Shown here piece after piece: positions 4,083-30,342 of a stretch of 64,000 nt of DNA (positions are counted from its first letter, which is position 1; each line of letters begins with the position of its first letter). The stretch spans positions 23,286 to 87,285 of the forward strand of contig JADJRF010000001.1 in NCBI GenBank assembly GCA_016712355.1, given 5' to 3'. The notes under the pieces were generated by a model, which had not been told where the DNA came from, did no database searches, and saw only the letters and a list, made by a program, of their open reading frames with translations. Source of the stretch: Vampirovibrionales bacterium. GTDB lineage: Bacteria; Cyanobacteriota; Vampirovibrionia; Vampirovibrionales; Vampirovibrionaceae. A program made the position numbers and the translations under genes.

Positions 4083-4193
4083 ATGGAAGAAGAAGGTGGT
4101 TACTCAGGCGTTTTCTATGTGATGCTGATTATTGGCATCGTCGGCGTGTTGGGTTTCTTTGTTGTGGCCGCCGGCGCCGCTGGCGGGATGTAG
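4083..4193 (+). CDS. Small single-pass membrane protein
   Basis: GGGGGA SD then ATG 4083; hydrophobic core VFYVMLIIGIVGVLGFFVVAAGAA. Confidence 0.4.
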   Translation: MEEEGGYSGVFYVMLIIGIVGVLGFFVVAAGAAGGM

Positions 4194-4203
4194 GAGAGGC
4201 GGC

Positions 4204-7301: not shown

Positions 7302-7494
7302 CGGCTTTCTGCGCCAGATCGGGCGCGTGCGGATGCCGGCCTCGACCGTGTGCGCACGGTGTGGGTCGGCGGTTGTCGAAATGGCGATCCGGGAAGATGG
7401 CGCGGTCAAGGCGTACTGCCTGGCTTGCGTGGAGCAGATGAAAGAGGAAAGAGCGCAGAACAATGACCAAGAAATCCTATCTCACCGTAACTGA
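7291..7494 (+). CDS. Small zinc-ribbon protein
   Basis: ATG 7291, in frame with ORF 6952..7494; CARCG...CLAC pairs. Confidence 0.45.
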   Translation: METDGFLRQIGRVRMPASTVCARCGSAVVEMAIREDGAVKAYCLACVEQMKEERAQNNDQEILSHRN

Positions 7495-8884: not shown

Positions 8885-9168
8885 CCGAACTTCGTTACAC
8901 CGAACAGGATGTCCTCGACTTGAACGCGGAAGCGTGGTTCAAGATCATGGTTGAAGAACTCAAAACACTGTCGGCGCAATTCTGGAATCAGCGACTATCC
9001 AATACTGATCGATCCAGACTCCAGAGAGCAGCCGAGCTGCGAAAAGCCGGCGCCGTGCTGGTTGACGCCGATATGCGCTACGTGGGCGAATATGATGCTC
9101 CATTGGTCGAAGACCCATTCGATCCTGGCCGTTTCGTAACGATTCGACATGTAGAAAGGAACATGTGA
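8881..9168 (+). CDS. Hypothetical protein
   Basis: ATGA overlap with the MTase gene. Confidence 0.5.
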   Translation: MTELRYTEQDVLDLNAEAWFKIMVEELKTLSAQFWNQRLSNTDRSRLQRAAELRKAGAVLVDADMRYVGEYDAPLVEDPFDPGRFVTIRHVERNM

Positions 9169-9171
9169 CAC

Positions 9172-9348
9172 GTGGGTGACTATCAACGCATTTTGGCAAT
9201 CGACATTCTGTTAGCGGAAACAGAGGTGCCGGAAGAAGAAATCCGCAAGTACAAAGACTACGAGTTGGAAGCCTGGCTAGGCGAGCTTGGTTTCGAGTGG
9301 AACGGCGCCGAGTGGGTCGATGTCGATTGGCCGCCTGACGAGGACTAG
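9172..9348 (+). CDS. Small acidic hypothetical protein (58 aa)
   Basis: GTG 9172 to TAG 9346-9348 fills the gap between annotated ORFs. Below the ORF-track cutoff. Confidence 0.35.
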   Translation: MGDYQRILAIDILLAETEVPEEEIRKYKDYELEAWLGELGFEWNGAEWVDVDWPPDED

Positions 9349-10364: not shown

Positions 10365-11008
10365 CCCACTCACTTACCATCCGACTCGGCAACCGCGACG
10401 ATCTCGACTGGGCGCAACGCATCGTTGAGAGCGACCACTACCTGCATCAGCGCGTAGACCCACGCGCACGCCCGATGGTGTACGTCCTCGACTACGACGC
10501 CGTACCGGTTGGTCTGGTCATGCTCGGCATCCCGCACGCGACGCGGTGCGGCGGATGGTGTGGCTATCCCGGCTTGCCGACGCAATGGCAGGTGGTCGAT
10601 TTGTGCCGCATTTGGATTGACCCTGGTTTGCAAGCAGGCGGTCGCTGGTGCGATCCGTACACCGTCCCCGGCTTCTACGACCGGCGCGGCATGTTTCGCC
10701 CGACTACGCCGACCTGGGCGATCAGCGAGGTGCTACAACGCGTGCAGGCTGACCGGGTGCGGTTGTGGCCGCCAGTCTACCTGGAGCAGCCGTATCATAT
10801 CGAGTTGGCAATCAGCTATCACGATCCGCAGTACCACCGCGGCACGATCTACAAGCATAGCCACGCCACGCCGATGTACCGGGACGCCAGCGGCAACCCG
10901 ATACCGGGATCGTCCGGCAAATACGGCTGGTGCTGGCGATTGCCCGCGCCGGCATGGGAGTGGGATAGCTTGACCGATGTCCGGTCACGACAGATAAGGA
11001 TGCTGTGA
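10361..11008 (+). CDS. Mom-like GNAT-fold acyltransferase (putative nucleobase-modifying)
   Basis: ESDHYLHQ...VGLVMLGIPHATR...VVDLCRIWI...HRGTIYKHSHATPMY parallels the HHxHH / vGRPvAR / Rl / G-x-x-Y-x-A-x-x-W layout of Mom/DUF4338-type GNATs. Recalled pattern, not searched. Confidence 0.45.
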   Translation: MTHSLTIRLGNRDDLDWAQRIVESDHYLHQRVDPRARPMVYVLDYDAVPVGLVMLGIPHATRCGGWCGYPGLPTQWQVVDLCRIWIDPGLQAGGRWCDPYTVPGFYDRRGMFRPTTPTWAISEVLQRVQADRVRLWPPVYLEQPYHIELAISYHDPQYHRGTIYKHSHATPMYRDASGNPIPGSSGKYGWCWRLPAPAWEWDSLTDVRSRQIRML

Positions 11009-12300
11009 TGCAAGGCATACAAGACCCGCTTGCCGCGCTGCAAGACACGGCGCGCATTATCAACGAGGAACCGTACAACCCGGACTGGTTCTTCATGTTC
11101 AGCGGTGGCAAAGACAGCAACGCCACCGTACAATCGGCATGGGTGTGCGTCAAGGAAGGGAGCGTGCAGGCGCCGGCGACGGCCACGATCCTGTTTGCCG
11201 ATACGCAGATGGAGTTTCACCAGTTTCTCGAAGAAGTAGACGACAAGGCGCAGACATTGGTAGCGGCGTGGGAGTCGCTTGGCATCAAGGCGCGATACGT
11301 AAAGGTTGCGCCGGTGTTGCAATCTGACTTCTGGGTGCGTCTGTTGGGGTACGGCTACGCCCCTCCGACAAAGGCGATGCGCTGGTGTACCGACCAACTC
11401 AAGATTCAGCCGGCGCGCAAGATGCGCAACGCCCTCAACCTGAACGACGCGCTCTTGATGGTCGGCGCACGATACGGCGAAAGCGCACGGCGCGACGAGT
11501 ACCTGTCATGCACGATGGGCGGCGAATGCGGGCCGGATGCGATGGCGCGCGTCAAGAGCAAGTTTCCGACTATGCTGCCCGTGGTCAACTGGCGCACTTG
11601 CGCCGTGTGGGACTTCCTGCAACTGATTGCGCCCTCCTACGGGCTAGATAACAGCCGGCTGCGCGCCATCTACGGGCCGGACGGCGATTTGCGTTACGGG
11701 TGTTGGTCGTGCCCGCTGGTCTTCAACGACCGCACAGCCAAGTACTGGGCGGAAACCGACCCGCTGACCGCTGAGCTTTTGACCTGGACAAACGCCAACC
11801 TACGGCCTGGGGGCGCAGCTTGGGCGTCAGTGAATCGTGAGCTATTTGAGGGGCAAGAAGCGCGCCTGTCGCTGGACTACTGTCGCCGGCTCTTTGGTGA
11901 GTTGACCGACATGCAAAATCGGCATGGGCGCACGCTGCTAAAAGAGTGGCAGATTGACGGTATCAAGACGCTGTGGATATGGCGAGAGCAAGCGCCAGAG
12001 GCAATGCGCGGCGTGATTGCGCAGGAGACGCTGCTCGACATGACGCCGAAACCGACACGCGTTCACATCTCTCAGTTTCCTTTGCGCACGGCCAGAGCGC
12101 TGTACGAAGCACCGCTATGGGAGGATTCGTACCACGGCGTTATCCAGCGCCATGCAGCGACACTGGTCGAATTGTCGCCGGGGGTATCGTGGAACTACCA
12201 ATCACAAGTTGGAAACGGACAGGACGCTGCAACGATTTGGGGTAACGCACAGGATCAGATTATCCGCGTGCACGGCGATGAAATCGAGAGGCTGAACTAG
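11005..12300 (+). CDS. DndC-like PP-loop ATPase (PAPS reductase family)
   Basis: PP-loop FSGGKDSNA, RWCTDQLKIQP, GARYGESARR, and Cys motifs YLSCTMGGECGPD and YGCWSCPLV, as in DndC. Unknown ~150-aa C-terminal extension. Confidence 0.8.
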   Translation: MMQGIQDPLAALQDTARIINEEPYNPDWFFMFSGGKDSNATVQSAWVCVKEGSVQAPATATILFADTQMEFHQFLEEVDDKAQTLVAAWESLGIKARYVKVAPVLQSDFWVRLLGYGYAPPTKAMRWCTDQLKIQPARKMRNALNLNDALLMVGARYGESARRDEYLSCTMGGECGPDAMARVKSKFPTMLPVVNWRTCAVWDFLQLIAPSYGLDNSRLRAIYGPDGDLRYGCWSCPLVFNDRTAKYWAETDPLTAELLTWTNANLRPGGAAWASVNRELFEGQEARLSLDYCRRLFGELTDMQNRHGRTLLKEWQIDGIKTLWIWREQAPEAMRGVIAQETLLDMTPKPTRVHISQFPLRTARALYEAPLWEDSYHGVIQRHAATLVELSPGVSWNYQSQVGNGQDAATIWGNAQDQIIRVHGDEIERLN

Positions 12301-12302
12301 CA

Positions 12303-12623
12303 ATGTGTTTCGAGCAACTGCACGAATCTTCCAAGCGTGGCGAATTATTGTTGGTGGACGGCGGTATGTGCCACTGGCATTTGCGACGCGACGGTCAGCT
12401 AACGATTAGGGAGATCATTGCGACGAAATCGGGAGCCGGTACGCAGATGCTCGATCTGCTGCGCGTCGTCGCTAGCGCGTCATGCATCGTTGCGAAGTGT
12501 CCCGCCGATCTTTCAGCGAATTCCTGGTATGCGCGCAAAGGGTTCTTTCTCGTCGCGACGGAGACGGCGAAATCGGGCAGACCGATCAACGTGTGGCACC
12601 TCGACTTATGCAACTCGATCTGA
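12303..12623 (+). CDS. Mini GNAT-like acetyltransferase-fold protein
   Basis: 106 aa. TKSGAGTQML fits the acetyl-CoA motif A (xxGxG/A), and the C-terminal SWYARKGFFLV resembles the FYxKxGF GNAT ending. Confidence 0.45.
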   Translation: MCFEQLHESSKRGELLLVDGGMCHWHLRRDGQLTIREIIATKSGAGTQMLDLLRVVASASCIVAKCPADLSANSWYARKGFFLVATETAKSGRPINVWHLDLCNSI

Positions 12624-13192
12624 TTGCCGGCCACTACCACTGCGACAATTGCGGGCAGGTTGTCGAGCATGTGCAGCGCACGCGCCGTTTTTGGCTGTGC
12701 GACGCGTGCTGGCAAGCCATCGTGCCGGCATACGACACGATCCCGACGCAGGACGGCAAGCGCACGGCTGAGTGGCTGGCAGAGTGGGCGCCAGTGCGTG
12801 AGCAAATCGGGAACTATTGGGGCTGGTATCACGACATGGAGAAACGGTACCCACCGCGTTACACCCCACCCCGCAAGCCGCTCGAATTGCACTACAAGCC
12901 GGTTGACGCCGACAGCCTCAATCCGCTGTGCGCGTGTGGCCGGCCACGCCAGCCAATGAGCTTCATGATCACTACGTCGCCTGGACTCTTTGGCGGCCCG
13001 TTTCGCAGCCATTGCGAAGTGTGCGAAGCAAAGTTGGCGGTCGAGAGCATCTTCAAGATGGCAGAGAAGATTCACCAAGACTGGAACGATGAAGACTGGC
13101 TGGAGTATTGCTGGCAGCATCGACGCGAGTTGTACGACGTGGGCGTGCTGCCGGACTACTGGTTTACGCTGAAAGCTGTGCAATTGCCATGA
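12608..13192 (+). CDS. Hypothetical Cys-rich protein; shares a C-terminal domain with the next gene
   Basis: ATG 12608, in frame with ORF 12482..13192; CDNCG...CDAC zinc pairs. Confidence 0.55.
   Translation: MQLDLIAGHYHCDNCGQVVEHVQRTRRFWLCDACWQAIVPAYDTIPTQDGKRTAEWLAEWAPVREQIGNYWGWYHDMEKRYPPRYTPPRKPLELHYKPVDADSLNPLCACGRPRQPMSFMITTSPGLFGGPFRSHCEVCEAKLAVESIFKMAEKIHQDWNDEDWLEYCWQHRRELYDVGVLPDYWFTLKAVQLP
13040..13178 (+). repeat. Direct repeat copy 1 (shared C-terminal domain)
   Basis: About 139 bp similar to 13627-13765 (offset 587 bp). Confidence 0.7.
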
Positions 13193-13791
13193 ACAACACT
13201 CTGACCAACGAGCAGCGCGCCGCCCGCCGCGCGAAAAGGAAAAACGGGAAGCTCATCAGGTCGATGCCGCTGTTTGCGGACGCACTCCGTCCTGATGGCG
13301 CAATGGCGTCATGGCTTACTACGCCAGAACAAGAATTGCCGGCTGTCGAGCGGAATCGGCAACAGGCGCGCGAATTTGGCGACCGTATGCGGGCGAAAGA
13401 GGAGAAAGAGCGACAGCAGGAAGCCGAGGAGAGAGCGAAGGCGATTGAAGGTAAGACGCCTGAGCAAATCGCCTTTTTGGAGAAAGGTCGTCAAGCCTAT
13501 CCGCCCTTCGGGGATTACGGCGCGACCTTCTGGCGCAAATCGCAGCAGCCAGGCTTCCTGGAAGCGCAAATGGAGAGAATGGCCGACCTGCAACGGCGCG
13601 GTGAGACGGTGCGCGCAAGAATAGCCGTCGAAGGCATCTTCAGGACAGCGGAGAAGACCCACCCGGACTGGGACGATGAAGACTGGCTGGAGCATTTTTG
13701 GCAGCATCGACGCGAGTTGTTCGATGCGGGCGTGCTGCCGGACTACTGGTTTACATTGAAAGCGAGGTTTGGAGATGTCGCAGTACGATAA
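13189..13791 (+). CDS. Hypothetical protein, C-terminal paralog of 12608..13192
   Basis: ATGA overlap. C-terminal IFRTAEKTHPDWDDEDWLEHFWQHRRELFDAGVLPDYWFTLKA matches the upstream gene. Confidence 0.55.
   Translation: MNNTLTNEQRAARRAKRKNGKLIRSMPLFADALRPDGAMASWLTTPEQELPAVERNRQQAREFGDRMRAKEEKERQQEAEERAKAIEGKTPEQIAFLEKGRQAYPPFGDYGATFWRKSQQPGFLEAQMERMADLQRRGETVRARIAVEGIFRTAEKTHPDWDDEDWLEHFWQHRRELFDAGVLPDYWFTLKARFGDVAVR
13627..13765 (+). repeat. Direct repeat copy 2 (shared C-terminal domain)
   Basis: See 13040-13178. Confidence 0.7.
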
Positions 13792-14008
13792 CCTGATTGG
13801 ACTTCGGTACAAGCAGCTTGTGCATGACTCCAAGAAAGGGATGGTCTGGCGCACGTTCGAGGTGCGCTCCATCGTGGATGGCGACCAGGCAGTGACACGC
13901 GTCTGGAGCCGGCGCCACCGCGTCTACGTCTACCAGATTACGCCAGCGGCTATCCTTGCTGACTCGCTAGAGAACAGCGAGATGTACAAAATTGTAAAAA
14001 AAGTGTAA
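13769..14008 (+). CDS. Hypothetical protein
   Basis: ORF overlapping the upstream gene end; last gene of its block. Confidence 0.5.
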   Translation: MEMSQYDNLIGLRYKQLVHDSKKGMVWRTFEVRSIVDGDQAVTRVWSRRHRVYVYQITPAAILADSLENSEMYKIVKKV

Positions 14009-14017
14009 AATCCTGAT

Positions 14018-14076
14018 AATTCAATTGAATTTACGTGGTTGCCGTATTGCAATTCAATTGAATTGTGTGGTATAAT
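14018..14076 (+). promoter_or_regulatory. Promoter with twin 14-bp palindromic operators
   Basis: AATTCAATTGAATT at 14018-14031 and 14051-14064. TTGCAA (14047-14052), 18-nt spacer, TGG-TATAAT (14071-14076). Confidence 0.65.
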
Positions 14077-14165
14077 CAGCTTATCACCAAGTGGTGAGAC
14101 GAAACCAAAAGGCAAAGCAAGAGCCGAGCCACTACCGACCGCAAGTGCGGTAAGGAGTCAGAACG

Positions 14166-14525
14166 ATGAACACCACACAGACCACCGCCCCAGTCGCAAT
14201 CAAGACCCGCAACTTCAGCGAAATGCCTGGCAGCAACACCTATTTCCGCACCAGCGACTGCACGCCGTTTTTCAGCGAAGACGGCAGCTTGGTTGTCTAC
14301 AACGGCAAAGGCGACAGCCGCTCGTGGGGCACGCCTTCCGTGCGTAGCACCGTCAAGTCGCTGACCGCCAACGTCATCAAGGTGACTGTGGTCGGCTGGC
14401 ACAAGCACACGGTCTCGCCGGTCGGCGGCAGCTTCTACTTTGTTAATGAGGCCGGCGCCTGGGTGCGCCGCACCGCCGGCCACAAGACAGTCAAGGCGGC
14501 CATAGCCGCCGCTGTTAGCCACTAA
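14166..14525 (+). CDS. Hypothetical beta-rich protein, first gene of the accessory operon
   Basis: AAGGAG SD (inside the CCGCAAGTGCGGTAAGGAG element) 8 nt before the ATG. Confidence 0.6.
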   Translation: MNTTQTTAPVAIKTRNFSEMPGSNTYFRTSDCTPFFSEDGSLVVYNGKGDSRSWGTPSVRSTVKSLTANVIKVTVVGWHKHTVSPVGGSFYFVNEAGAWVRRTAGHKTVKAAIAAAVSH

Positions 14526-14535
14526 ACCATACGCC

Positions 14536-14562
14536 GCGCCGGGCGGTCAATCCCGGCGCTTT
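14536..14562 (+). terminator. Possible intra-operon attenuator/terminator
   Basis: GCGCCGGG-cggtcaat-CCCGGCGC followed by TTTAAT. Confidence 0.45.
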
Positions 14563-14656
14563 AATGCAGCCAGGCACGCAAGTGCGCCGCCTGACCGTCC
14601 CAAGCCGGAGCAATGCAGAGGGAAGTGTCGCCGCAAGTGCGGCAAGGAGATTGATC

Positions 14657-15403
14657 GTGAGCACGCTAAAAGTTTCTTTTTACCGTTCCGACAAATGGCG
14701 AGACGCCGAGTTCGTCGCCACCGGCTGCCGACCGGCGACTATCGGGCAAGAGACGTTCGACCTGGTGGAAGCCACGGTCGAACAGCGCCGCAATGTTGCG
14801 GCGCTGCGAATTGCTGACACTCAGATCAGCATTTCGCCCGGCGTCGAGTTTGATGCCGTGCCAACACTCGCAGAGGCGCTGGACGCCTACCAGCGCCAAG
14901 AGAAGCAGCGCGCGGAAAAGGAAGCCGACGCCGAAGCTAAGCGCGCCGCCGACCACGTTCGATTTTTAGAAGAACAAGCACAGCGCAAGGCTGCCGAGGC
15001 TGTCGTTGAAGCAGCTAAGCAGCAACGCCAGGTTGAAAAGCTGGCGTGGTGCCAGGCGCACGGCAGCGACCGTCTGCGTCGCGGCGTCGAACGCGGCCAT
15101 GACTGCCAGGCGCTCTATGTCCGCGAGCGCGCCGCCGTCGAAGCGCCCGGCTTCACTGCCGACATCTACGACGCCGCCAAATGGAAGTCGGCCACCTGCC
15201 CAAGCGCCAAGTCCCTCGACACCGCCGAAGCTGCCGAAGCCCTGGGGCTTGGCCCGGTAGATGTTGTCTGGTTGACGGCGCCGGCCGCCGACACCAAAAC
15301 CGACGCCGACATGGACTACGCGGACGGCTACGGCTGGAGCGCGTGCGAGGCCGTCGTCATCAGCGGGTACCTCGGCAAGTACGACCTGGTGCAGGCATTG
15401 TGA
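14657..15403 (+). CDS. Hypothetical protein with central coiled-coil
   Basis: GTG 14657 lies 7 nt after a second copy of CCGCAAGTGCGGCAAGGAG, in frame with ORF 14564..15403. Confidence 0.55.
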   Translation: MSTLKVSFYRSDKWRDAEFVATGCRPATIGQETFDLVEATVEQRRNVAALRIADTQISISPGVEFDAVPTLAEALDAYQRQEKQRAEKEADAEAKRAADHVRFLEEQAQRKAAEAVVEAAKQQRQVEKLAWCQAHGSDRLRRGVERGHDCQALYVRERAAVEAPGFTADIYDAAKWKSATCPSAKSLDTAEAAEALGLGPVDVVWLTAPAADTKTDADMDYADGYGWSACEAVVISGYLGKYDLVQAL

Positions 15404-15894
15404 TCGCCCTCGATTTTGATGGTGTGGTCGCCAACTACAGCGATCACACCACGACGATCCGGCTCAATACGGGTCTGCTGGCGCTGCTCCCCCGGCAGCG
15501 CCAGCCGGTCGTGATCTGCACGAACCAGGGCGGCATGGCCTTTAGCCGGCTCAACCCGGCCAAGTACCCGACACCATTGCAGGTTGCGCAGCGCCTGAAC
15601 GCAGGTCGCAATTTCCTGACGCGCAACGGCTACCCAGTCGCCGCCATTTTTGCATCCACCTACCACCCCAAAGCTGATCCTGCCGAGATTCAACGGGTGG
15701 CGCAAGAGTTGCGTGAGCTTATCTCTGTGGTCGTCCCGCGCTGGCACGTCTACACGACCGAGCGGGCGCGCAAGCCTCACGCGTTCATGCTCAAAGTTGC
15801 TGGCGCCACGGTGTATTATGGCGACAGCCCGGAAGATCAACAGGCGGCCTCGGCAGCCGGCGTACCGTTCGTGGCGGTTCCACGCTTTTTGTAG
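15400..15894 (+). CDS. HAD-IIIA family phosphatase (GmhB / polynucleotide 3'-phosphatase-like)
   Basis: GTGA overlap. Motif I ALDFDGVV, motif II ICTNQGG, motif III RKP, motif IV GDSPEDQ. Confidence 0.75.
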   Translation: MIALDFDGVVANYSDHTTTIRLNTGLLALLPRQRQPVVICTNQGGMAFSRLNPAKYPTPLQVAQRLNAGRNFLTRNGYPVAAIFASTYHPKADPAEIQRVAQELRELISVVVPRWHVYTTERARKPHAFMLKVAGATVYYGDSPEDQQAASAAGVPFVAVPRFL

Positions 15895-15903
15895 GGATCG
15901 AAG

Positions 15904-16197
15904 ATGGCGACACCGATCACAGAACGCATCAATAAGGCGCGTGCGCATCTATCGCAACTGCGCCATATTTCGGAAAAAGAGATTACCGCCGATCTCACCG
16001 GACGCGAACGTGCCAGCGCCATCATCCGAGCGCGCACGCAGTACAATGCGGTGTACAGTGCCGTCAAGTTGGTGGCGCGTGGTCGCAAGTTGCGCGGTAT
16101 CGATGCGCCGACTGCGCAACAACAGGCTGAAGCGCAACGCCTCATTGACGATGCGCACCGGTTGTTTACTTACGCCCGTCGATTCAGCGTGAAATAG
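15904..16197 (+). CDS. Hypothetical helical basic protein
   Basis: ORF, 97 aa. Confidence 0.5.
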   Translation: MATPITERINKARAHLSQLRHISEKEITADLTGRERASAIIRARTQYNAVYSAVKLVARGRKLRGIDAPTAQQQAEAQRLIDDAHRLFTYARRFSVK

Positions 16198-16204
16198 GAG
16201 GATT

Positions 16205-16954
16205 ATGAACTCGACTCGATTGCTTTATCAAGCCGCCGGCCAGCCGCCCGTTCCCGCCGTCATCGACGCGTCAGGATGGATGCAACTGTCCAAGCGGAAA
16301 CGCCCCACCGCGCCGCCCGGTGGCAAGTGTTATCTTTGTGGCGGTGAAGTTGAAGGCGCTGGCGTGCCTACCGCAGAACGCTTTGGCGAGACCTGGACGG
16401 CACATGGCGACGCGCTTCAACCCGATGCGGAGTGGCTGTGTGCTGCTTGCGCCTTCAGCCTGTCGGAAGCGGCGACGCACCCGGCAAAGCCCAATCCGTT
16501 CAAGATGCGTACAATGACGCATTTGGTTATTGGTAGTCAATGGGAGTTGCTTGGACTTTCCGACAAGCGCCGCATGGCTGAGGTGTTGTTGTCGCCGCCA
16601 CGCGCCGATCCCTGGCTGCTTTGCATTCAGGATGCGCCGCTTAGCGCCGGCCACGCCATCTACCGCACGCCGGTCAACGCCGCCGGCGCAACCGCGTGGC
16701 GAGTCACGCTTGGCGGCAGCGTCATTGCCGGTTCGCCTACGCATCTTGCTGCCGTGCTGACGCCAATCGAGGCGCTGTACCTGGCGGAGCATAGCAAGAC
16801 CGCCATCCGCACGGGCGTCTATACGCCCAAATGGATTCTTGCCCAGGGCGAAAACGACTGGGCGCGACTAGAAGCGTCAATCGTCCCATTGCGAGGGCAG
16901 CCTATTTTTGAGCTTGCGCTATTCCTGGCGCAGAAAGGAACCGACGACGAATGA
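16205..16954 (+). CDS. csf1: Csf1-like (type IV Cas8-like) zinc-finger protein
   Basis: AGGAGG SD. 249 aa with CYLCGG...(35 aa)...CAACAF zinc pairs near the N-terminus; size and position upstream of the Cas7-like gene fit Csf1. Motif-level inference only. Confidence 0.45.
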   Translation: MNSTRLLYQAAGQPPVPAVIDASGWMQLSKRKRPTAPPGGKCYLCGGEVEGAGVPTAERFGETWTAHGDALQPDAEWLCAACAFSLSEAATHPAKPNPFKMRTMTHLVIGSQWELLGLSDKRRMAEVLLSPPRADPWLLCIQDAPLSAGHAIYRTPVNAAGATAWRVTLGGSVIAGSPTHLAAVLTPIEALYLAEHSKTAIRTGVYTPKWILAQGENDWARLEASIVPLRGQPIFELALFLAQKGTDDE

Positions 16955-18408
16955 ATCTCAACCTCCATGCCACGATCACCCTACGGTCATCCCTGGCACA
17001 CGGCGCCTTCGATGCCGGTGCAACCGTGATCCCCTTCCGCCGCGAGCCTGTGCTCCAACGCGACGATGCCGGTGCGCCTGTTCTCGACCCCTACGCTGCG
17101 CTGACCGCCGATCCGGTGCAGCGTGAGCAACTGCGCCAGTACGCACAGCGCCTTTTGCGCGTCGTCTGGCAGTCCAAAAGCGACCGCGCCTGGAGCTACG
17201 CACAACTTGCCGAGCGCATCGCCGTCACCGCGCGCATGAAGGCGACGCTTGGCGATTTCCTCATGGAGATGCTCCAGAAGATGGGCGCCGGCGAAAGTCC
17301 AATCTACTTTCAGGATGACGCCGAGTTCGTTGCCAGTATTCTGGCCGCCGCCGATGCCAACACGCTGCTGGCGCTGCTGCGCGAACAAGGTGAGCGTTTG
17401 CTGATCGTCGCGCGTATGCAGGCAGAAAGCGCCGCCCGCTTCGAGGGGCGCACGATCAAGGCTGCCGAAAACGGGCAAATGGCGCTGCTTGGCGCGCCGG
17501 CGCCCGACGAGAAACCCGTACCGGAAGCATTCCGCACGCGCGCGATGCCGTACATACCGATGGTGCCAGTCTACTCAGGCAACGCCATCCGTAACGGCGT
17601 CATTCGCCGTCACGCCGCCCGCTTCTTGCTGGATCGTTTCGGCTGGAAGTTGGACATTGACCACTTCCGTGCGCTTTTTGTCGGCGGCAGCCTGGTGCGC
17701 ACGGGCGAAAAGGGCTTCGACATCGATCAGCGTCGCAAACTCATCGACATGATGCCGCTCTATGGATTACTTGGCGGCGCGTTCAACACATCGAGCATGG
17801 TCGAGGGCAGCACAAAATGCGGCAAGGCATGGCCGATTGTGCGCGAGGCGATCCCGGTGCTTCCGCAAGTTCTTCGCAGTCAAGCCGACATGCTGGCAAT
17901 GCAGAGCGTGATCGGCACCGAGTCCTACAGCCGCCGCGAAGACGCTGCGATGCTGGCGGGATCGTACATCGCCGGACAAGCGACGGTCGGCGCCACCGAT
18001 GCGCACATGGGCATGATGTTCGAGCGCGAAGTGATCGTCGCCGGCACGCGCCTGTGGAATCAGTGGCACTTTTATCAGGCGACTGAGCACCAACTCGGTG
18101 CGTGGATTTCCGCTTGGGTGAAGTGGGCCGAACGCCCGGTTCTGGGTGGAGCGTCGCAGCACGGCCACGGCATGGCCGATGTGGACTACCGGCGCAACGG
18201 GGAGCCATTCCTTGCCGTGACAGATGGCAAGATCGCGTTGGCGCCGGAAGCACAGGCCGCTTTCGACGCCTACCAGCGCCACCTGGACGCACGTAAAGAG
18301 GCTATCTCTATCCTGCTGATGGCTGTTGAGCCGGGTGAGCCAATCCCAACCGGCACCGTGGACGCCGGCAACCTGCAAGGCGATCTGCTGGCGCAGGAGA
18401 CCGACTGA
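16951..18408 (+). CDS. csf2: Cas7/Csf2-like RAMP backbone protein with large insertion
   Basis: ATGA overlap. N-terminal strand HATITLRSSLAHG, then VPVYSGNAIRNGVIRRHAARFLLD, LFVGGSL and PLYGLLGGAF resemble Cas7/Csf2 signatures. About 150 extra helical residues after strand 1. Confidence 0.5.
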   Translation: MNLNLHATITLRSSLAHGAFDAGATVIPFRREPVLQRDDAGAPVLDPYAALTADPVQREQLRQYAQRLLRVVWQSKSDRAWSYAQLAERIAVTARMKATLGDFLMEMLQKMGAGESPIYFQDDAEFVASILAAADANTLLALLREQGERLLIVARMQAESAARFEGRTIKAAENGQMALLGAPAPDEKPVPEAFRTRAMPYIPMVPVYSGNAIRNGVIRRHAARFLLDRFGWKLDIDHFRALFVGGSLVRTGEKGFDIDQRRKLIDMMPLYGLLGGAFNTSSMVEGSTKCGKAWPIVREAIPVLPQVLRSQADMLAMQSVIGTESYSRREDAAMLAGSYIAGQATVGATDAHMGMMFEREVIVAGTRLWNQWHFYQATEHQLGAWISAWVKWAERPVLGGASQHGHGMADVDYRRNGEPFLAVTDGKIALAPEAQAAFDAYQRHLDARKEAISILLMAVEPGEPIPTGTVDAGNLQGDLLAQETD

Positions 18409-18409
18409 G

Positions 18410-18712
18410 ATGGTGCGGGGGCGCTACTTCATCACGCCCCATGCGGTACAGCAATTCCAGGCGCGTGTTGCGCGCCTGGAATATGCCGAGTGCATCCGTG
18501 TCATTGCGGATGCACTCGAAGCTGCACCGATAGAGCGTCACGCCGTCACTTACAACGGTACAGCAATGCGTGTTAGAGTGCGCAAGCCGTTTCATTTTCG
18601 CGCCATTATCGTACCTGGTGATCCGCTACCTGTCGTGACGACGATTCTGAAAAGCGGAAAGCGTGGTCAAAATCGAGGAAGGATGCAACTATATGCCGCC
18701 AATGAAGATTAG
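18410..18712 (+). CDS. Small DUF4258/BrnT-like fold protein (tentative)
   Basis: ATG 2 nt after the csf2-like stop. ITPHAVQQFQAR...VVTTIL resembles the ItxHAxxRmxxR...vITvy layout of DUF4258/BrnT RNase-fold proteins. Confidence 0.35.
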   Translation: MVRGRYFITPHAVQQFQARVARLEYAECIRVIADALEAAPIERHAVTYNGTAMRVRVRKPFHFRAIIVPGDPLPVVTTILKSGKRGQNRGRMQLYAANED

Positions 18713-19376
18713 CTGTAAACCCAACACTTTATTCGTGTACGACCGCTGGATCGCAGTAGATGCATTGATCCAGCGGGCATATCTACTGGACAAATTTGGC
18801 GCAGAGTTTTATCAACTCCCTACGCTTACCGCTGGCTCTCCCGCCAGCGATCTGATGGATTGCGCGTTGCCGCTCGAATCTCGACAGCGCGGCGGTCATC
18901 AATACTGGGCGGCGTCGTGGTGCGACGTACAGTCGATGCAGTTGCAACAGGACGCATCCGCCTGGGTGCGTCAATTCAGCGACGCCGATGGCGTGAGCTA
19001 CTTGCACGACAAAGCCAGGCGGATCAACACGACTGCCGGACGCGACAAGGCGTACAATATGCCTATCCATCTGCGCACGCTCGATGAATGCGTCTGGTAT
19101 GTTGTTGGTGATATTGCCGAGATCGACCGCCTACTCAATGGCTACATCCATGCCATCGGCAAAAAGGCGGCATACGGCAACGGTGCGCTTCAGGAGTACG
19201 CAACCGGCCAGTATTGGCGGGTCGAAGCCTGGCCGCACGACTGGAGCGAACGCGACGCTGAAGGCCGCCTGACCAGAGGGTTGCCGGCGACGACGTTGGA
19301 TAATGCTGAGATTTACGGAGTACGCCCGCCCTACTTCGTGCGGGCCAACCAGATTCTGATGGAGATGCCGGCGTGA
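18693..19376 (+). CDS. csf3: Cas5/Csf3-like RAMP protein
   Basis: GAGGAAGGA SD then ATG 18693. N-terminal WIAVDALIQRAYLL and the Gly-rich loop AIGKKAAYGNGAL are typical of Cas5/Csf3-type RAMPs; 227 aa. Confidence 0.45.
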   Translation: MPPMKISCKPNTLFVYDRWIAVDALIQRAYLLDKFGAEFYQLPTLTAGSPASDLMDCALPLESRQRGGHQYWAASWCDVQSMQLQQDASAWVRQFSDADGVSYLHDKARRINTTAGRDKAYNMPIHLRTLDECVWYVVGDIAEIDRLLNGYIHAIGKKAAYGNGALQEYATGQYWRVEAWPHDWSERDAEGRLTRGLPATTLDNAEIYGVRPPYFVRANQILMEMPA

Positions 19377-20113
19377 AAGCGGCAAACCGGGAACGCTACC
19401 TATTGCACGCCACGCTGCCGACGCACCGACGCAAGCTGGCCCAAGCGCGCTCAATCGTGCAAGATGCTCTGGCGGCGTGCCCATCGTGGTATGTGGCGTT
19501 TTCGACCGGCAAGGACTCGACCTGCGTATTGGCGCTGGTGCGCGAGGTGCTCCCCGACGCCGTAGCGCACCACTCGCTACACCAGCGAATGCTGCCGGAA
19601 AGTTTCGCCTATCTGGATCGCACTGCCAACGTGCGACGTGTCGCCTACCAAAATTTCGACGGCACCGACTGGGCACAGCGATGGGAAAGCAGAGAAGCAG
19701 CCGAGGCCGCCGGCGCACGTTGGCTAGATGACGACGAGATCGCCACGCGCGGCGCTCCCGAAGCCGGCGTCTTCCTGGGGCTGCGCGCTGACGAGGCCGG
19801 CTATCGGCGCGTTCATCTGCGTAAGAATGGGGTGTTGTTTCAGGCGCAAAAAACCGGTAAGTGGCACTGCAACCCCATTGCCTGGTGGAGCGTCGAGGAT
19901 GTGTGGGCGTACATTCTTAGCCACCAAATCGACTACAACGCCGCATACGACAGGCTTGACGAGTTGGGCTTGTCCGCCGCTGAACAGCGAATAGGCCCGT
20001 TGGCAGTAGAACGTGTTTTGGGATACGGTCAACTCGCCATCTTGCGGCGCGGTTGGCCGGAAATTTACCGTAACTTGGTTGCCCACTTCCCAGAAGCGGC
20101 GACCTACACATGA
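19373..20113 (+). CDS. PAPS reductase family PP-loop protein (cysH-like)
   Basis: GTGA overlap. PP-loop AFSTGKDST, GLRADEAGYRR, PIAWWSVEDVWAYILSHQIDYNAAYD. Confidence 0.8.
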   Translation: MKAANRERYLLHATLPTHRRKLAQARSIVQDALAACPSWYVAFSTGKDSTCVLALVREVLPDAVAHHSLHQRMLPESFAYLDRTANVRRVAYQNFDGTDWAQRWESREAAEAAGARWLDDDEIATRGAPEAGVFLGLRADEAGYRRVHLRKNGVLFQAQKTGKWHCNPIAWWSVEDVWAYILSHQIDYNAAYDRLDELGLSAAEQRIGPLAVERVLGYGQLAILRRGWPEIYRNLVAHFPEAATYT

Positions 20114-20691
20114 AAGGAAATACCACTATGACGAACGATGAAAAACGTGCAGAAGTCGAGCGCATTGTGCGCGAGTTTACGATGCAGTACATCGAGCGCC
20201 GCCTGCTGTGGCAGTTAGGACAGATCGTGCCCGGCGCCGACGGTGTGCCCGCCGCACGTCACGCCCTGGCGCAACTCTACGCCGGCGCCGCCGATGCACT
20301 GCAATACACGATGGAGCCGCAAGAGTGGCGCACGTTGGCGCTTTACGGCGCTGGCGTGATCGATGGCGATCCCGGCGAAATGCAGGAAATCGCACAGAGC
20401 ATGGCGGAATGGCTATTCAGCCTACCGACGCACAACCGGTATGAAATCCCGGACTACTGGGCGGAAACCGAACTTGGTGCGCTCTGGTGGGCTGCGGTCA
20501 TTCGCAATCAGGGCGACGAACTGATCACCATTGCCGACGCTGCACGGCTGGCTGGCGTCACCGTGCAGGCAATCAGCCAACGGATAGAGCGTGGTTCGCT
20601 AGATGTATTTGTCGATCCATTTGCGCCTGAACGACAAGGGCGTCAAAAGGTAAGGCGGCGCGATATCTTGTCTGACGCATCTAGCGACTGA
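20110..20691 (+). CDS. Hypothetical protein with C-terminal excisionase/MerR-type HTH
   Basis: ATGA overlap; LITIADAARLAGVTVQAISQRIERGSL. Confidence 0.55.
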   Translation: MKGNTTMTNDEKRAEVERIVREFTMQYIERRLLWQLGQIVPGADGVPAARHALAQLYAGAADALQYTMEPQEWRTLALYGAGVIDGDPGEMQEIAQSMAEWLFSLPTHNRYEIPDYWAETELGALWWAAVIRNQGDELITIADAARLAGVTVQAISQRIERGSLDVFVDPFAPERQGRQKVRRRDILSDASSD

Positions 20692-20755
20692 CGAAGTGGA
20701 GTGTAGTTGACACGATGTAGGTTGTGTCAACTACACTCCACTTCGTGTTTTTTTT
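20692..20755 (+). terminator. Rho-independent terminator with 22-bp perfect stem
   Basis: CGAAGTGGAGTGTAGTTGACAC-gatgtaggtt-GTGTCAACTACACTCCACTTCG followed by TGTTTTTTTT. Confidence 0.8.
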
Positions 20756-20771
20756 GGGAAAGAAGACCACG

Positions 20772-20993
20772 ATGAAGATCACGCAGAATAAAAACTACAT
20801 CAAGATCACAGAGCCAGACCGCCCCGTCGAACTGATCGTGGCAAACGAAGGCGACTACGCCGACTTGCAGTTGGGATTCGGGGTGAAGGTCAAAAACATC
20901 ACTCTGGGCACCGAATTAACGCCGGAAGCGGCGCTGGCCGTTGGTCGATGGTTGATCGACTGGGCAGAACGAGCCGCGCCGGGTCAAGCGTGA
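20772..20993 (+). CDS. Hypothetical protein
   Basis: ATG 20772 lies downstream of the terminator hairpin, in frame with ORF 20724..20993. Confidence 0.45.
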   Translation: MKITQNKNYIKITEPDRPVELIVANEGDYADLQLGFGVKVKNITLGTELTPEAALAVGRWLIDWAERAAPGQA

Positions 20994-21919
20994 TGGACGC
21001 CATCACCGTTTTACCCGCCGGCACGCCGACGCCCTATCAATCCGCCGATCTTTCACCGATTATCGAGATGGTGCTGGATTCGCTTACCTCGCCGCGCACG
21101 CGCCGCGACTACAGCCGCGCTTTGCGCGATTTTCTGGCGTGGTACATCCAGGAAAACCGGCAAGGGTTGAACCGGATCACCGTGCAGGCGCACATCCGCG
21201 CGCTGCGAGAGGCTGGCGTGCCGGCGTCGAGCATCAACCAGCGGCTGGCGGCCATCCGCAAGCTGGCGCTGGAGGCCGCCGACAACGGCTTCCTCGACGA
21301 ATCGACCGCCCAAGCCATCAAGCGCGTGCCCAACCAGCCGCGTAAAGGCAAGAAACTGGGTAATTGGTTGACCGCAGAGCAGGCAAAATCCATCCTCGAC
21401 GCACCAGACCGAACGACGCTGGCCGGCAAGCGCGATGCCGCAATCCTGGCGATTGCACTGGGCGCCGGCTTGCGGCGTGAGGAAATCGCATCGCTCACCG
21501 TCAAACAGATTCAGCAGCGCGACAAACGTTGGCTGATCGTGGACATCGAAGGCAAGCACCACCGCACGCGATCTGTCGCCATCCACGAAAGCATCAAGGC
21601 GCGCATCGACGCCTGGCTGGAAGCGGCCGGCATCGCCAGCGGGCCGATCTTCCGGCGCATCTTTCGCAACGGCAAGATTGGCGCCAGCATGACAGCGCAA
21701 ACCGTCTGGCTGGTCGTGCAGAAGTACAACCCAGAAGACATGCCCCTGGCGCCCCACGACATGCGGCGCACCTTCGCTATCCTCGCCTACGAAGCCGGCG
21801 CTTCGCTCAAGTCGATCCAGAATGCACTTGGACACGAATCGGTCGAGACGACCGAGAACTACATTGGCGACCGCGCCGACATCCACATTTCCCCTTCCGA
21901 TATGCTTCCTATCTTCTAA
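20993..21919 (+). CDS. Tyrosine recombinase / phage integrase family
   Basis: GAGLRREE (Arg I), HDMRRTFA (H-x-x-R), LGHESVETTENY (His + catalytic Tyr); N-terminal SAM-like domain. Confidence 0.85.
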   Translation: MDAITVLPAGTPTPYQSADLSPIIEMVLDSLTSPRTRRDYSRALRDFLAWYIQENRQGLNRITVQAHIRALREAGVPASSINQRLAAIRKLALEAADNGFLDESTAQAIKRVPNQPRKGKKLGNWLTAEQAKSILDAPDRTTLAGKRDAAILAIALGAGLRREEIASLTVKQIQQRDKRWLIVDIEGKHHRTRSVAIHESIKARIDAWLEAAGIASGPIFRRIFRNGKIGASMTAQTVWLVVQKYNPEDMPLAPHDMRRTFAILAYEAGASLKSIQNALGHESVETTENYIGDRADIHISPSDMLPIF

Positions 21920-21932
21920 ATATGCCTATAGA

Positions 21933-21980
21933 TTGACAAAGTATACACCGTATGATAATTTATTCTCCTAAAGGCAATTG
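21933..21980 (+). promoter_or_regulatory. Putative promoter with GGCAATTG box
   Basis: TTGACA 21933-21938; GATAAT/TAATTT -10 candidates at 21954-21961; GGCAATTG 21973-21980. Confidence 0.45.
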
Positions 21981-22007
21981 ATGCAAGGTGATTCCAAAGG
22001 AGAATAT

Positions 22008-24113
22008 ATGCTTGTCGAAAGTGTGTTCGCGCAGTGGGAGAAGGCACGCAACGGCGAGATCGACGCTGTGGCGTGGAAAGAGTGGGCGATCAAGCTCTAC
22101 TTCGAGAGCGATTTACTGGCTGAACTTCAGGCGCTCAAAGTGGCGCAACTGAAGGAGTTGCTTGCCAGGCTGCTTACCGTGGCGCGTGGCAGCAAGAAGG
22201 CCGAAGTGGCCGATGAGGCATACAAGGCGATTTCCGGCGTGCTCACGGTGATGTCGCCGGTCGGTCTCGCCTACTCGTACAGCTACGACGATCACCGCAC
22301 AGGACAGGTAGAGGCAAAACGGCTGGCGCAAGTGCGCAAGTCTATCGAGGCGATTACCCCCGACGACATGGCCGCCTACGCAGCCCGATGCGCAGAGCGT
22401 GCTGCCGCACACACCGCTGCACTGACCGATCCCCAAACGCTGCAAGATTTTTCCGTCTTCCTGCGCAGCAAGGGCGTGGACGCGCTGACCGATGATCAAC
22501 TGGAGCGTTTCGACACCCTGATCTGGGAGCGCGACCAGGCTAACATCCGTGCTGAGCAGGAGCGGCGCGCCAAGATCGATCAGGTCGATTTGGGCGATGT
22601 CGAGTTGACCGTCACGCAGGAACGTCACACGCAGAAGGACGTGGACATCTGGATCGTGCGGCTCTCGACGCGCGTCGATGGCGACATCTACAAGCAGTTG
22701 GCCGAGGCCGCCGAGCGGTTGGGCGGCGGCTGGTCGCGTTACTCCAACGGCTTCCTGTTTTGGGAGAAAGAAGACGCCGAGACCTTTGCCGGCGTCAAGG
22801 ACGGCGACGTAAGCGCCGGCGACCGATGGGAACGCAATCGCCGGATGCGTGAGGAGCGAGCCGCAGATCGCCTGGCGCAGTACGCTATCCGCAAGGACGG
22901 CGCCGCCGCCGATGTGCTGGCGATGGATCGACTCACCAACACCGTGCGGCGCGCACGTATGGCGGCCAGCGCGGAAGCGGACGCACGCAGCGACCAGGCA
23001 ATGGCCGCTACGATCATGAGCATCGCCACGGCGCAAGCGAACGGTGATGCGTTGACGGTGCTTGCCAACGTGCGCAGCGCCGTGCAGGTTGCCGAGCTTC
23101 TCTATCTGCTGCGCCGCGCCATGATCGCCGGCGCAAAGGCACGCGGCGAGACCATCTCCTACAGCGACCCGGTGCGCTACGACGCTGCCGACATTCGCCA
23201 TGCGGAGTATCCCTGGCCGGCGTGGAACGAAGGCGATGCGCGCGAAGTGGCGACGCTGCTCAAGGGCAAGCGTGGCGCCGGCGATGCGCTCGCCGTGCTC
23301 AACAACATGATCAAGGGCGTCAGCAGCAGCGGCATGGTAACGGCCCGCACGAAGATGGGCGCCGACGCGATGGTAACGCTGGCCGGCATGTTTCCAGGGA
23401 TTAACAACTACTGGACGGAGGCAATACGGGCAAGCACGATCTCTTATCAGCGGCTGGAACGGATGGGGATCGACAACCTGCCGATCTTACGTCACGCACT
23501 GCGTGAGTTGCTGCCGCACGTAGTTGCGCCGGCGCAACCAGACCCCGTGACGGTGGCCGAACGTGCGCTGATCGGCGTGCGCATTCCCGGATTCTTCCCG
23601 ACGCCGGCTGATGTCGTCGCCAAGATGCTCGACTACGCTCAGGTCGAGCCGGGTATGCTGGTGCTGGAGCCATCCGCCGGCAAGGGCAATATCGTTACGC
23701 CGTTGCTCGATGCCGGAGCGAAGGTGATCGCGGTCGAGCACGCCTACACCCTGCTCCACATCTTGCGACTCAAGTATACCGCCCGCATCGTCATTGCCGA
23801 TGGTGATTTTTTGGAGATTCCAGCCAAGCGTTGGCGCCACACTCCGATAGATCGCGTCGTAATGAATCCTCCCTTCGAGGATGGGCAGGACATCTCGCAT
23901 GTCTGCCACGCCTACGACTTTCTGCGTGAAGGCGGGCGGTTGGTCGCGATCATGGGCGCGGGTGCGTTCTATCGAAGCGACAGTCGGGCGGTTGCGTTTC
24001 GGACGTGGCTGGAAGACGTAGGCGGTGAAGTGGTCGAGGATTTGCCGTCTGGCACCTTCTACCACGAGGCCGGTACGAACGTATCAACGAAGATGGTGTT
24101 GATCACCAAGTAG
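22008..24113 (+). CDS. Large protein with C-terminal N6-adenine DNA methyltransferase domain
   Basis: AAAGGAG SD then ATG 22008. C-terminal FFPTP (motif X), VLEPSAGKGNI (motif I), VVMNPPF (motif IV). About 500-aa N-terminal helical region of unknown function. Confidence 0.8.
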   Translation: MLVESVFAQWEKARNGEIDAVAWKEWAIKLYFESDLLAELQALKVAQLKELLARLLTVARGSKKAEVADEAYKAISGVLTVMSPVGLAYSYSYDDHRTGQVEAKRLAQVRKSIEAITPDDMAAYAARCAERAAAHTAALTDPQTLQDFSVFLRSKGVDALTDDQLERFDTLIWERDQANIRAEQERRAKIDQVDLGDVELTVTQERHTQKDVDIWIVRLSTRVDGDIYKQLAEAAERLGGGWSRYSNGFLFWEKEDAETFAGVKDGDVSAGDRWERNRRMREERAADRLAQYAIRKDGAAADVLAMDRLTNTVRRARMAASAEADARSDQAMAATIMSIATAQANGDALTVLANVRSAVQVAELLYLLRRAMIAGAKARGETISYSDPVRYDAADIRHAEYPWPAWNEGDAREVATLLKGKRGAGDALAVLNNMIKGVSSSGMVTARTKMGADAMVTLAGMFPGINNYWTEAIRASTISYQRLERMGIDNLPILRHALRELLPHVVAPAQPDPVTVAERALIGVRIPGFFPTPADVVAKMLDYAQVEPGMLVLEPSAGKGNIVTPLLDAGAKVIAVEHAYTLLHILRLKYTARIVIADGDFLEIPAKRWRHTPIDRVVMNPPFEDGQDISHVCHAYDFLREGGRLVAIMGAGAFYRSDSRAVAFRTWLEDVGGEVVEDLPSGTFYHEAGTNVSTKMVLITK

Positions 24114-24124
24114 GCTGAAGCCGC

Positions 24125-24167
24125 AAAAGAGAAAGCCCCTGGGCACTCCCCAGGGGCTTTCTCTTTT
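24125..24167. terminator. Bidirectional stem-loop terminator between convergent genes
   Basis: AAAAGAGAAAGCCCCTGGG-cactc-CCCAGGGGCTTTCTCTTTT. Confidence 0.75.
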
Positions 24168-24469
24168 CAGAAAGTGAAGCCGCGTATTTCGCCAGGGTTC
24201 TGCGCTGACGGCGCTTCGGGCGGCGTGGCCGGCACGAAGCCTCTGCGGGTGTTGGTAGGCGCTGGCGGCGGTGCGACCTGCGCCGGCGGCTGATTATCCG
24301 GTGAATCTTCACCGCCTTTCAGCGCCGCCGCCACCGATACAATTAGAAACATCGCGGCTAGAAACAGCGCGTAGTTGGTTGCATCGCGATTGCCGGTGCT
24401 GTTGAGCAGGATGGCGACGGACAGGGCGATAGCCGTCAGCAACTGCATGGCGATTCCGAACATACTCAC
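24167..24469 (-). CDS. Small membrane protein (2 TM) with Pro-rich tail
   Basis: Hydrophobic segments FGIAMQLLTAIALSVAILL and ALFLAAMFLIVSVAAAL. Confidence 0.5.
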   Translation of the reverse strand: MSMFGIAMQLLTAIALSVAILLNSTGNRDATNYALFLAAMFLIVSVAAALKGGEDSPDNQPPAQVAPPPAPTNTRRGFVPATPPEAPSAQNPGEIRGFTF

Positions 24470-30324: not shown

Positions 30325-30342
30325 CCTGTCACTCTGCCGATG

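Follow-up and report, generated by a model that had tools for sequence, protein, structure and literature searches.

An array-less type IV-B CRISPR-Cas cassette from a Vampirovibrionales bacterium, with a probable Cas11 domain inside Csf2

What does a set of CRISPR-Cas effector genes do where neither a repeat array nor adaptation genes accompany it, and what has become of a subunit that related loci encode as a separate gene? These questions are raised by five genes of a Vampirovibrionales bacterium (GenBank assembly GCA_016712355.1), located at 16205-20113 of a 64,000-nucleotide stretch of contig JADJRF010000001.1 (positions 23,286 to 87,285, forward strand). This whole stretch is referred to below as the window, and positions are numbered within it. 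Profile, sequence and model-based structure searches confirm the prediction of an array-less type IV-B CRISPR-Cas gene cassette. The explanation that we consider best, and likely to be correct, is that of a self-contained set of IV-B (Csf) effector genes borne on a large mobile element, in which Cas11 resides within Csf2 and whose products would assemble into an RNA filament carrying a modifying enzyme.

The three effector subunits were recognized well above chance level by the type IV models of PADLOC, with Csf1 matching typeIV_Cas8 (Csf1_0_IV; E = 2e-22), Csf2 matching typeIV_Cas7 (E = 6e-39) and Csf3 matching typeIV_Cas5 (Csf3_0_IV; E = 3e-30). The matches to the NCBIfam models cas8u_csf1 (E = 5.6e-7), cas7_csf2 (51.5 bits, with a curated cut-off of 130 bits) and cas5_csf3 (E = 4e-15) fall under the curated equivalog cut-offs, and the three proteins are therefore regarded as divergent members of their families. 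The motifs initially noted are in place: CYLCGG and CAACAF in Csf1, VYSGNAIRNG in Csf2, IGKKAAYGNGAL in Csf3 and FSTGKDS in the CysH-like protein. The cysteine pairs of Csf1 align with those of Csf1 from canonical IV-B loci. A search of all PDB sequences using Csf2 gave the Csf2 of the IV-B complex (PDB code 7JHY) as the best match (E = 5e-10 over residues 202-410) and a IV-A Csf2 with an E value of 5e-4. A Foldseek search with an AlphaFold model of Csf2, built from 22 homologues (mean predicted local distance difference test score, pLDDT, of 74), returned type IV Csf2 chains as the top 34 matches (E = 3e-9), followed by 7JHY and the type III protein Csm3.

The last gene of the cassette encodes a protein that exceeds the gathering score of the Pfam family PAPS_reduct (PF01507; E = 3e-12) and is similar by BLASTP (E = 1e-16 to 1e-18) to the IV-B CysH-like proteins of plasmid pRHL2 of Rhodococcus jostii RHA1, Skermania phage SPI1 and a Rhodovastum plasmid. 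It contains the PP-loop STGKDS (SxGKDS) and lacks ECGxH, the catalytic cysteine motif of true PAPS reductases; a PP-loop without the catalytic cysteine is among the features listed for 'CasCysH' (PMC8175902). The window contains a second PAPS-reductase-family gene (11005-12300), which is DndC/PRK06850-like (E = 1e-30) and essentially unrelated to the first (E = 0.03). An initial annotation, made by reading the sequence, had proposed five open reading frames (ORFs) here and named Csf1-like, Cas7-like, Cas5-like and CysH-like products; all five ORFs are present and the names are borne out by the profile searches and, for Cas7, by the PDB sequence and Foldseek results.

Tandem Repeats Finder and a direct-repeat scan revealed no CRISPR array in the 64 kb, the only repeat array being an iteron-like one at 34617-34725, and no cas1/2, cas6, helicase or nuclease genes were found near the operon, in agreement with the initial annotation on the repeats, cas1/2, cas6 and the helicase. 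Up to 5 kb away to each side, the genes are those of a HAD-like phosphatase, unassigned small ORFs, a helix-turn-helix (HTH) protein, a recombinase of the tyrosine type and a methyltransferase. DnaB at 36043 is the sole helicase identified in the window, in a scan that covered part of the small ORFs. Rfam and ARAGORN found no RNA family and no tRNA over all 64 kb; the window offers no intergenic space around the cassette, and no Rfam match, for a conserved noncoding RNA beside it. The locus thus combines the type IV signature gene csf2 with csf1, csf3 and a linked cysH-like gene and lacks an array, adaptation genes, cas6, csf5, DinG and RecD, which, cas11 apart, is the composition of subtype IV-B.

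One gene of canonical IV-B loci is nevertheless missing. In these loci, cas11 lies between csf1 and csf2 (PMC8175902, PMC7937560), and all canonical loci that were inspected (L023-L025, L007-L012 and L026-L028, where the prefix L denotes the loci compared here) had cas11 as a separate gene; the order csf1-cas11-csf2 was verified in six contigs from IMG/VR, three more metagenome loci, phage SPI1, pRHL2 and the Rhodovastum plasmid. In the window, csf1 directly overlaps csf2 and there is no separate cas11 gene, nor is there one in the loci of the same clade with a readable csf1-csf2 junction (L001, L002, L004, L006, L013, L015 and L022). Csf2 itself, with 485 residues compared with 270-340 in canonical proteins, carries ~180 extra residues. 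The initial annotation had likened the locus to published IV-B descriptions, which holds for the core genes and the absences, but it overlooked both the missing cas11 and the excess length of Csf2.

The extra residues form a discrete segment. All plasmid and phage tblastn matches to Csf2, as well as ~830 of 837 HMMER matches, align only from residue ~195 (185-205) onwards, the plasmid matches being canonical IV-B loci. The first 33 residues can be aligned with the opening strands of canonical Csf2 (RREPVLQ versus RREPVIQ in RHA1) and the alignment resumes after the insert at the motif VPVYSGNA; because both flanks align with canonical Csf2, residues ~34-203 are interpreted as a clean domain insertion. 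In the predicted structure, residues 55-164 fold into a six-helix bundle. Comparison of a profile of the insert with seven IV-B Cas11 proteins using hhalign gave a probability of 93 % and an E value of 3.5e-7 over 116 columns, compared with E values of 0.1 or above for reversed and column-shuffled Cas11 alignments; with the same Cas11 profile, true separate Cas11 proteins gave E values of 1e-17 to 1e-25 and neighbouring proteins 0.07 or above. The insert is under the same constraint as the Csf2 core (ratio of nonsynonymous to synonymous polymorphism, pN/pS, of 0.17-0.19), and insert and separate cas11 gene never co-occur in the loci examined. It is very likely that Cas11 became a domain of Csf2 in this clade. 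The function of Cas11 is then probably retained inside Csf2, although the separate gene by which IV-B is described, taken as written, is lacking.

Two results temper this assignment. The PADLOC typeIV_Cas11 model matches residues 78-173 only weakly (E = 5e-4), and a model of the isolated domain (pLDDT of 81) gave as its top Foldseek match among 350,542 PDB chains the IV-B Cas11 chain 7jhy_g, with an E value of 0.42, which is not significant alone, and template-modelling (TM) scores of 0.44/0.50. Since helical bundles resemble one another easily, the ~170-residue insert might instead be an unrelated helical expansion in a clade that has lost Cas11 as type IV-A has; the weak match to the low-GC phage subset of Cas11 proteins (E = 4e-4) and the bare similarity between this insert and that of a second Csf2 lineage described below (E = 0.024) point in the same direction. 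We nevertheless regard an unrelated expansion as quite unlikely: the profile-profile match extends over nearly the whole length of Cas11 and stands well apart from its controls, the independent PADLOC model selects the same residues, the closest structural neighbour is a IV-B Cas11 chain, and no locus examined has both the insert and a separate cas11 gene.

The second, distant Csf2 lineage is represented by P0123, a metagenomic protein of 473 residues in which the same loop holds an insert that is more evidently Cas11-like (hhalign E = 4e-9) and retains the IDW...W...FVERLC motifs of phage Cas11 proteins. Considering the window clade and P0123 together, there were either two independent insertions or a single old one that has since diverged. 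The long-form Csf2 proteins also possess an acidic C-terminal tail, in which none of Q476, E483 and D485 varies among 22 homologues; canonical Csf2 proteins stop ~25 residues earlier and lack it. The tail could be a short docking motif.

The genes of the cassette are tightly packed. The csf1/csf2 and csf3/cysH junctions are ATGA and GTGA overlaps, respectively, and the small ORF between csf2 and csf3 overlaps csf3 by 20 nucleotides, all as initially annotated; its distance from csf2 is one nucleotide (TGA-G-ATG) and not two. The overlaps are typical of translational coupling and all genes are intact. Relative to relatives that are 81-83 % identical, pN/pS ranges from 0.16 to 0.27 across the cassette (0.24-0.27 for csf1 and 0.19 for csf3), and the genes are under purifying selection. 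The features of the cassette and its surroundings are collected in Table 1.

Table 1. Positions of the cassette genes, of the domains within Csf2 and of selected neighbouring features in the window
Feature	Position	Strand	Description
Candidate sigma-70-type promoter	14047-14076	+	TTGCAA-18-TATAAT, TG upstream; consensus scan only
csf1	16205-16954	+	249 aa; type IV Cas8-like large subunit, CxxC...CxxC zinc-ribbon cysteines
csf2	16951-18408	+	485 aa; type IV Cas7 backbone subunit with internal Cas11-like domain
Cas11-like helical domain	17050-17559	+	residues 34-203 of Csf2, with helices spanning 55-164
Acidic C-terminal tail of Csf2	18334-18405	+	Csf2 residues 462-485; LQxxxExxExD
Small accessory gene	18410-18712	+	100 aa; DUF4258-like family recurring in type IV-B loci
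csf3	18693-19376	+	227 aa counted from ATG; type IV Cas5 subunit
cysH-like gene (CasCysH type)	19373-20113	+	246 aa, GTG start; PP-loop STGKDS at 19502-19519
193-aa ORF, C-terminal HTH	20110-20691	+	ATGA overlap with cysH; outside conserved cassette
20-bp perfect hairpin, then T-run	20695-20752	+	Terminator scan
Tyrosine recombinase (XerC/D-like, 323 aa)	20948-21919	+	Pfam Phage_integrase E 2e-26; NCBIfam XerC E 6e-38, under equivalog cut-off
DNA methyltransferases; two tandem large serine recombinases	7463-8884, 21978-24113, 39443-40402, 42730-44643; 28780-31902 (-)		

The 100-residue ORF between csf2 and csf3 is a real gene that is recurrently linked to IV-B. Homologues with 37-43 % identity lie between csf2 and csf3 in L015 and L019 and between csf3 and cysH in the Rhodovastum plasmid, and three further members of the family, which comprises 30 clusters in a profile search, were all located within IV-B loci with a separate cas11, so that the context is a IV-B locus in all seven cases inspected. 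UniRef names the Rhodovastum member DUF4258, and DUF4258 is one of the RelE/ParE-superfamily (BECR-fold) toxin families (PMC11980606). This possible affiliation is a lead only, and several results weigh against it: the label derives from the UniRef name of a single member, five members gave no Pfam match, to PF14076 or any other profile, even at E values of up to 10, and the ORF itself had no significant NCBIfam or PADLOC match and, among PDB sequences, nothing better than ribosomal protein uS5 (E = 0.27). The protein was also considered as the missing Cas11 and rejected, being not Cas11-like (hhalign E = 0.21). The closest relative of the window's cassette (L013, with a Csf2 83 % identical) does not have the small gene, which is therefore a dispensable, optional accessory.

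The part of the cassette shared by related loci is limited to csf1-csf2-csf3-cysH, an order kept in relatives down to 45 % identity, while the flanks are entirely different. The enzyme position is variable. The L013 cassette is 74-83 % identical to that of the window in csf1-csf3 and only 36-38 % identical in the cysH-like gene (L013:3031-3777), whereas the cysH-like gene of L016 is 83 % identical; these values indicate a recent swap of the enzyme gene within the cassette. Elsewhere other enzymes join or replace CysH. L001 adds a SpoU-family methyltransferase (8798-9208) of the TrmL/TrmH type, an RNA-specific (SPOUT) class, and in L021 a B12-binding radical-SAM enzyme (2395-3639) takes the place of CysH. 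In L006 of the window clade (12104-12820), as well as in the low-GC phage contigs L011 (3854-4513) and L012, CysH is replaced by an 'LDSGAF' protein, the versions of which are 37 % identical (E = 6e-40) across these very different clades; an assignment of this protein as a DpdA/TGT-like transglycosylase was considered and dropped, as no Pfam, PHROGs, NCBIfam or PDB sequence match supports it. L015 adds a 210-residue ORF (3630-4262) without a family match, the translation of which contains a DxD-like motif that hints at a possible glycosyltransferase, and L010 has a weak family-2 glycosyltransferase match. Judged by gene linkage, this variability would fit a platform with an exchangeable modifying enzyme. 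In addition, gene pairs encoding a DUF3440-type PAPS reductase and a ParB_N protein flank the canonical IV-B genes of L023 (the Rhodovastum plasmid), L026 and L027 and may represent a recurrent IV-B neighbourhood.

The closest characterized counterparts are the IV-B systems of the Mycobacterium sp. JS623 megaplasmid (7JHY) and of R. jostii RHA1 pRHL2, which share csf1, csf2, csf3 and a cysH-like gene with a PP-loop and without the catalytic cysteine, are likewise located on mobile elements, and likewise have neither an array nor cas1/2, cas6, helicase or nuclease genes. The Csf2 core of the window is 28-30 % identical to those of this type. The JS623 and pRHL2 systems have a separate cas11, whereas the domain within Csf2 would fix the Cas11:Cas7 ratio at 1:1, compared with five Cas11 to six Csf2 in the 7JHY complex. 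They also lack the acidic tail and the DUF4258-like gene between csf2 and csf3, and cysH, which in the window follows csf3 on the same strand, is divergent and upstream in pRHL2. The alphaproteobacterial-type loci (Rhodovastum atsumiense plasmid RHOApd, L026 and L027) resemble the window in their same-strand order csf1...csf2-csf3-...-cysH and in having the small DUF4258-like gene (39 % identity over 82 residues by tblastn against L023), and among plasmids that of Rhodovastum gives the strongest tblastn match to Csf2 (E = 2e-18); these loci differ in retaining cas11 as a gene of its own (hhalign E = 1e-23 to 1e-25) and in placing the small gene between csf3 and cysH. Phage-borne IV-B loci (Skermania phage SPI1 orf40-44, IMG/VR contigs L007-L012 and the Fuxiviridae archaeal viruses) are array-less, with csf1-cas11-csf2-csf3 and a cysH-like gene, and unlike the window have a separate cas11 and often carry cysH between csf2 and csf3. 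The five SPI1 genes (L025; KR011061.1) form a complete IV-B cassette, including a cysH-like gene with SGGKDS, in a cultured phage and are all annotated only as hypothetical proteins.

Outside type IV, the small subunit is covalently joined to the backbone Cas7 domain or domains in type III-E Cas7-11/gRAMP and in III-D2, which reduces the number of separate subunits. The window resembles these systems in the joining of Cas11 to Cas7; they are, however, end-to-end multi-domain fusions that make up a single-protein effector with CRISPR RNA (crRNA) and RNase activity (see also PMC12669027), whereas here one Cas11 would occupy a loop of a single Cas7 that still needs to polymerise, with no evident guide or nuclease.

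The architecture is rare. Long-form Csf2 was found in 22 clusters by a word-indexed search, and an exhaustive HMMER search gave 837 Csf2-like matches in 1.84 billion representatives, with this architecture in five full-length proteins and two fragments. Long Csf2 is absent from the 185,579 species genomes scanned, and a metagenome scan added only five loci. An exact-sequence look-up of the window Csf2 returned no record, and megablast of 14000-24200 against phage and plasmid collections gave no match. The type IV literature searched contained no description of a Csf2-Cas11 fusion, which is absence of evidence only, and no mention of the 100-residue family. Type IV-B on plasmids, phages and prophages has already been published (PMC7038947, PMC10848311), which makes a phage-borne version less of a new handle on IV-B than the initial annotation had assumed. 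The system is thus of a known, enigmatic kind, while its architecture is apparently a rare and undescribed variant.

How might such a cassette work? Starting from what was observed, namely which genes are present, that a domain is inserted into Csf2, that selection is purifying, that the small gene is recurrently linked to IV-B and that the enzyme position varies, we infer a function from related systems. Assembly of a Csf2/Cas11 filament on RNA is known only for the Mycobacterium complex 7JHY (PMC7937560). By homology to that complex, Csf2 would polymerise on an RNA of ~55-60 nucleotides, the Cas11 domains, fixed at one per Csf2, would form a minor filament over the Csf2-Csf2 interfaces, and Csf3 and Csf1 would cap the filament. 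Gene linkage suggests that the filament may be a platform that brings the CysH-like enzyme to the bound nucleic acid, most likely RNA, and this ATP-dependent enzyme, as proposed in PMC8175902, might adenylate or otherwise modify nucleic acid within the complex. In relatives, the SpoU 2'-O-methyltransferase, the B12 radical-SAM enzyme or others may fill the same role, and the small BECR-fold-like protein might bind or cut RNA, either for loading or as an output, both again suggested by linkage. For the element, the gain would probably come from conflicts with its host or other mobile elements. Two considerations count against this scheme: the substrate of the CysH-like enzyme and its contact with RNA are read from gene neighbourhood only, and no function of IV-B is given in the literature searched.

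Other roles have to be weighed against an enzyme-carrying filament. The complex might load crRNAs made by the host or another element and, in the manner of IV-A, bind and silence competing plasmids or phages; such borrowing of guides has been proposed for IV-B (PMC8175902), class 1 complexes that bear guides have the architecture of Csf1/Csf2/Csf3, and a mini-array accompanies one IV-B locus of an archaeal virus (PMC10848311). Neither an array nor a mini-array, however, occurs in the 64 kb, crRNAs co-expressed in Escherichia coli were largely ignored by the Mycobacterium IV-B complex (PMC7937560), and the presence of IV-B is negatively correlated with that of other CRISPR systems (PMC7038947), so that borrowed guides appear unlikely, the more so as the conserved CysH-like enzyme would be left unexplained. 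The same objection, extended to the strict linkage of the enzyme gene and the variety of enzymes, applies to a sponge that soaks up crRNAs and small guide RNAs of the host without sequence preference and thereby shields the element from defence. A sponge would agree with the heterogeneous sequences of the RNA bound in 7JHY (PMC7937560) and with a cassette that resides on mobile elements and is transferred as one unit between flanks that are unrelated, and it has been discussed (PMC8175902, PMC7038947); the authors of PMC7038947 deem it unlikely in view of its complexity relative to known anti-CRISPRs, and we consider it very unlikely. A decaying remnant without function, which the lack of an array, nuclease or adaptation genes might bring to mind, is close to refuted by the intact genes with coupled-type overlaps, by the low pN/pS and by the persistence of the four-gene order among distant relatives in unrelated flanks. 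The enzyme-carrying filament remains our preferred explanation.

The window contains at least four DNA methyltransferases, a DUF5131 protein, a tyrosine recombinase, two large serine recombinases, an FtsK-like ATPase, a MoxR/VWA pair, DnaB beside iterons, a sliding clamp and thymidylate synthase; DNA modification and recombination are heavily represented in the element. A methyltransferase of 711 residues matches those of huge phages (phrog_15406; E = 9e-145) as well as the MADS mad2 model (E = 3e-18). In L006, L013 and L022, too, FtsK-like genes lie close to the cassette, and a tail-fibre gene near that of L021 suggests that some carriers are phages. The initial annotation had spoken of a phage-like element next to an integrase: the tyrosine recombinase does lie 0.8 kb downstream of the operon, but no phage structural gene was found among the ~40 larger ORFs scanned, many ORFs of the window being without a family match. 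DnaB is ~41 % identical alike to DnaB proteins of Firmicutes, Actinomycetota and phages; it is uninformative on host and element type.

Immediately around the cassette, the candidate promoter precedes a same-strand gene run that continues into csf1, and its driving of the csf genes is putative. The hairpin followed by a T-run is probably an intrinsic terminator closing the operon; it is situated between the operon and the tyrosine recombinase gene and could alternatively be a recombinase site. Two neighbouring ORFs were rejected as cassette members: the 193-residue HTH gene, the product of which has weak profile matches only (MerR-like phrog, E = 8e-5; mad1, E = 7e-5), has no homologue beside the cassette in any related locus, and a 97-residue ORF just 5' of csf1 (15904-16197) is absent from all of them. 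Further away, the iteron-like array consists of five tandem 21-22-nucleotide repeats with the palindromic core GGGTGAAAATCACCC. It is 1.3 kb upstream of the DnaB helicase gene (36043-37470), which makes it probably the replication origin of the element, and falls inside a 315-residue ORF call (34387-35334) without a family match that is perhaps spurious. The adjacent ORFs 12482-13192 and 13108-13791 share a nearly identical C-terminal segment (…DWDDEDWLE.FWQHRRELFDAGVLPDYWFTLKA) and are therefore tandem paralogues.

Type IV-B is the most widespread CRISPR-derived system without a function in the literature searched, and this locus leaves that unsolved. It does offer points of entry. Fusion of Cas11 to Cas7 would cut the complex to three proteins and fix its stoichiometry, which should aid reconstitution and structural work, and a small protein family found in IV-B contexts in all seven cases inspected provides a handle on these systems. 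The exchangeable enzyme position, including as it does the RNA-specific SPOUT class, points to nucleic-acid modification rather than interference as the output. A more far-reaching and still doubtful extension is that IV-B systems are devices of modular design, in which a Csf filament bound to RNA would deliver an exchangeable nucleic-acid-modifying enzyme, be it an adenylating CysH-like protein, a SpoU 2'-O-methyltransferase, a B12 radical-SAM methylase, the 'DSGAF' protein or a glycosyltransferase-like protein, and in which the DUF4258-like protein would be an RNA-handling factor that processes or selects RNA or acts as an RNase output. The clade with Cas11 inside Cas7 would then be the simplest of these devices to reconstitute and, if this reading is true, a route to assigning a function to IV-B.

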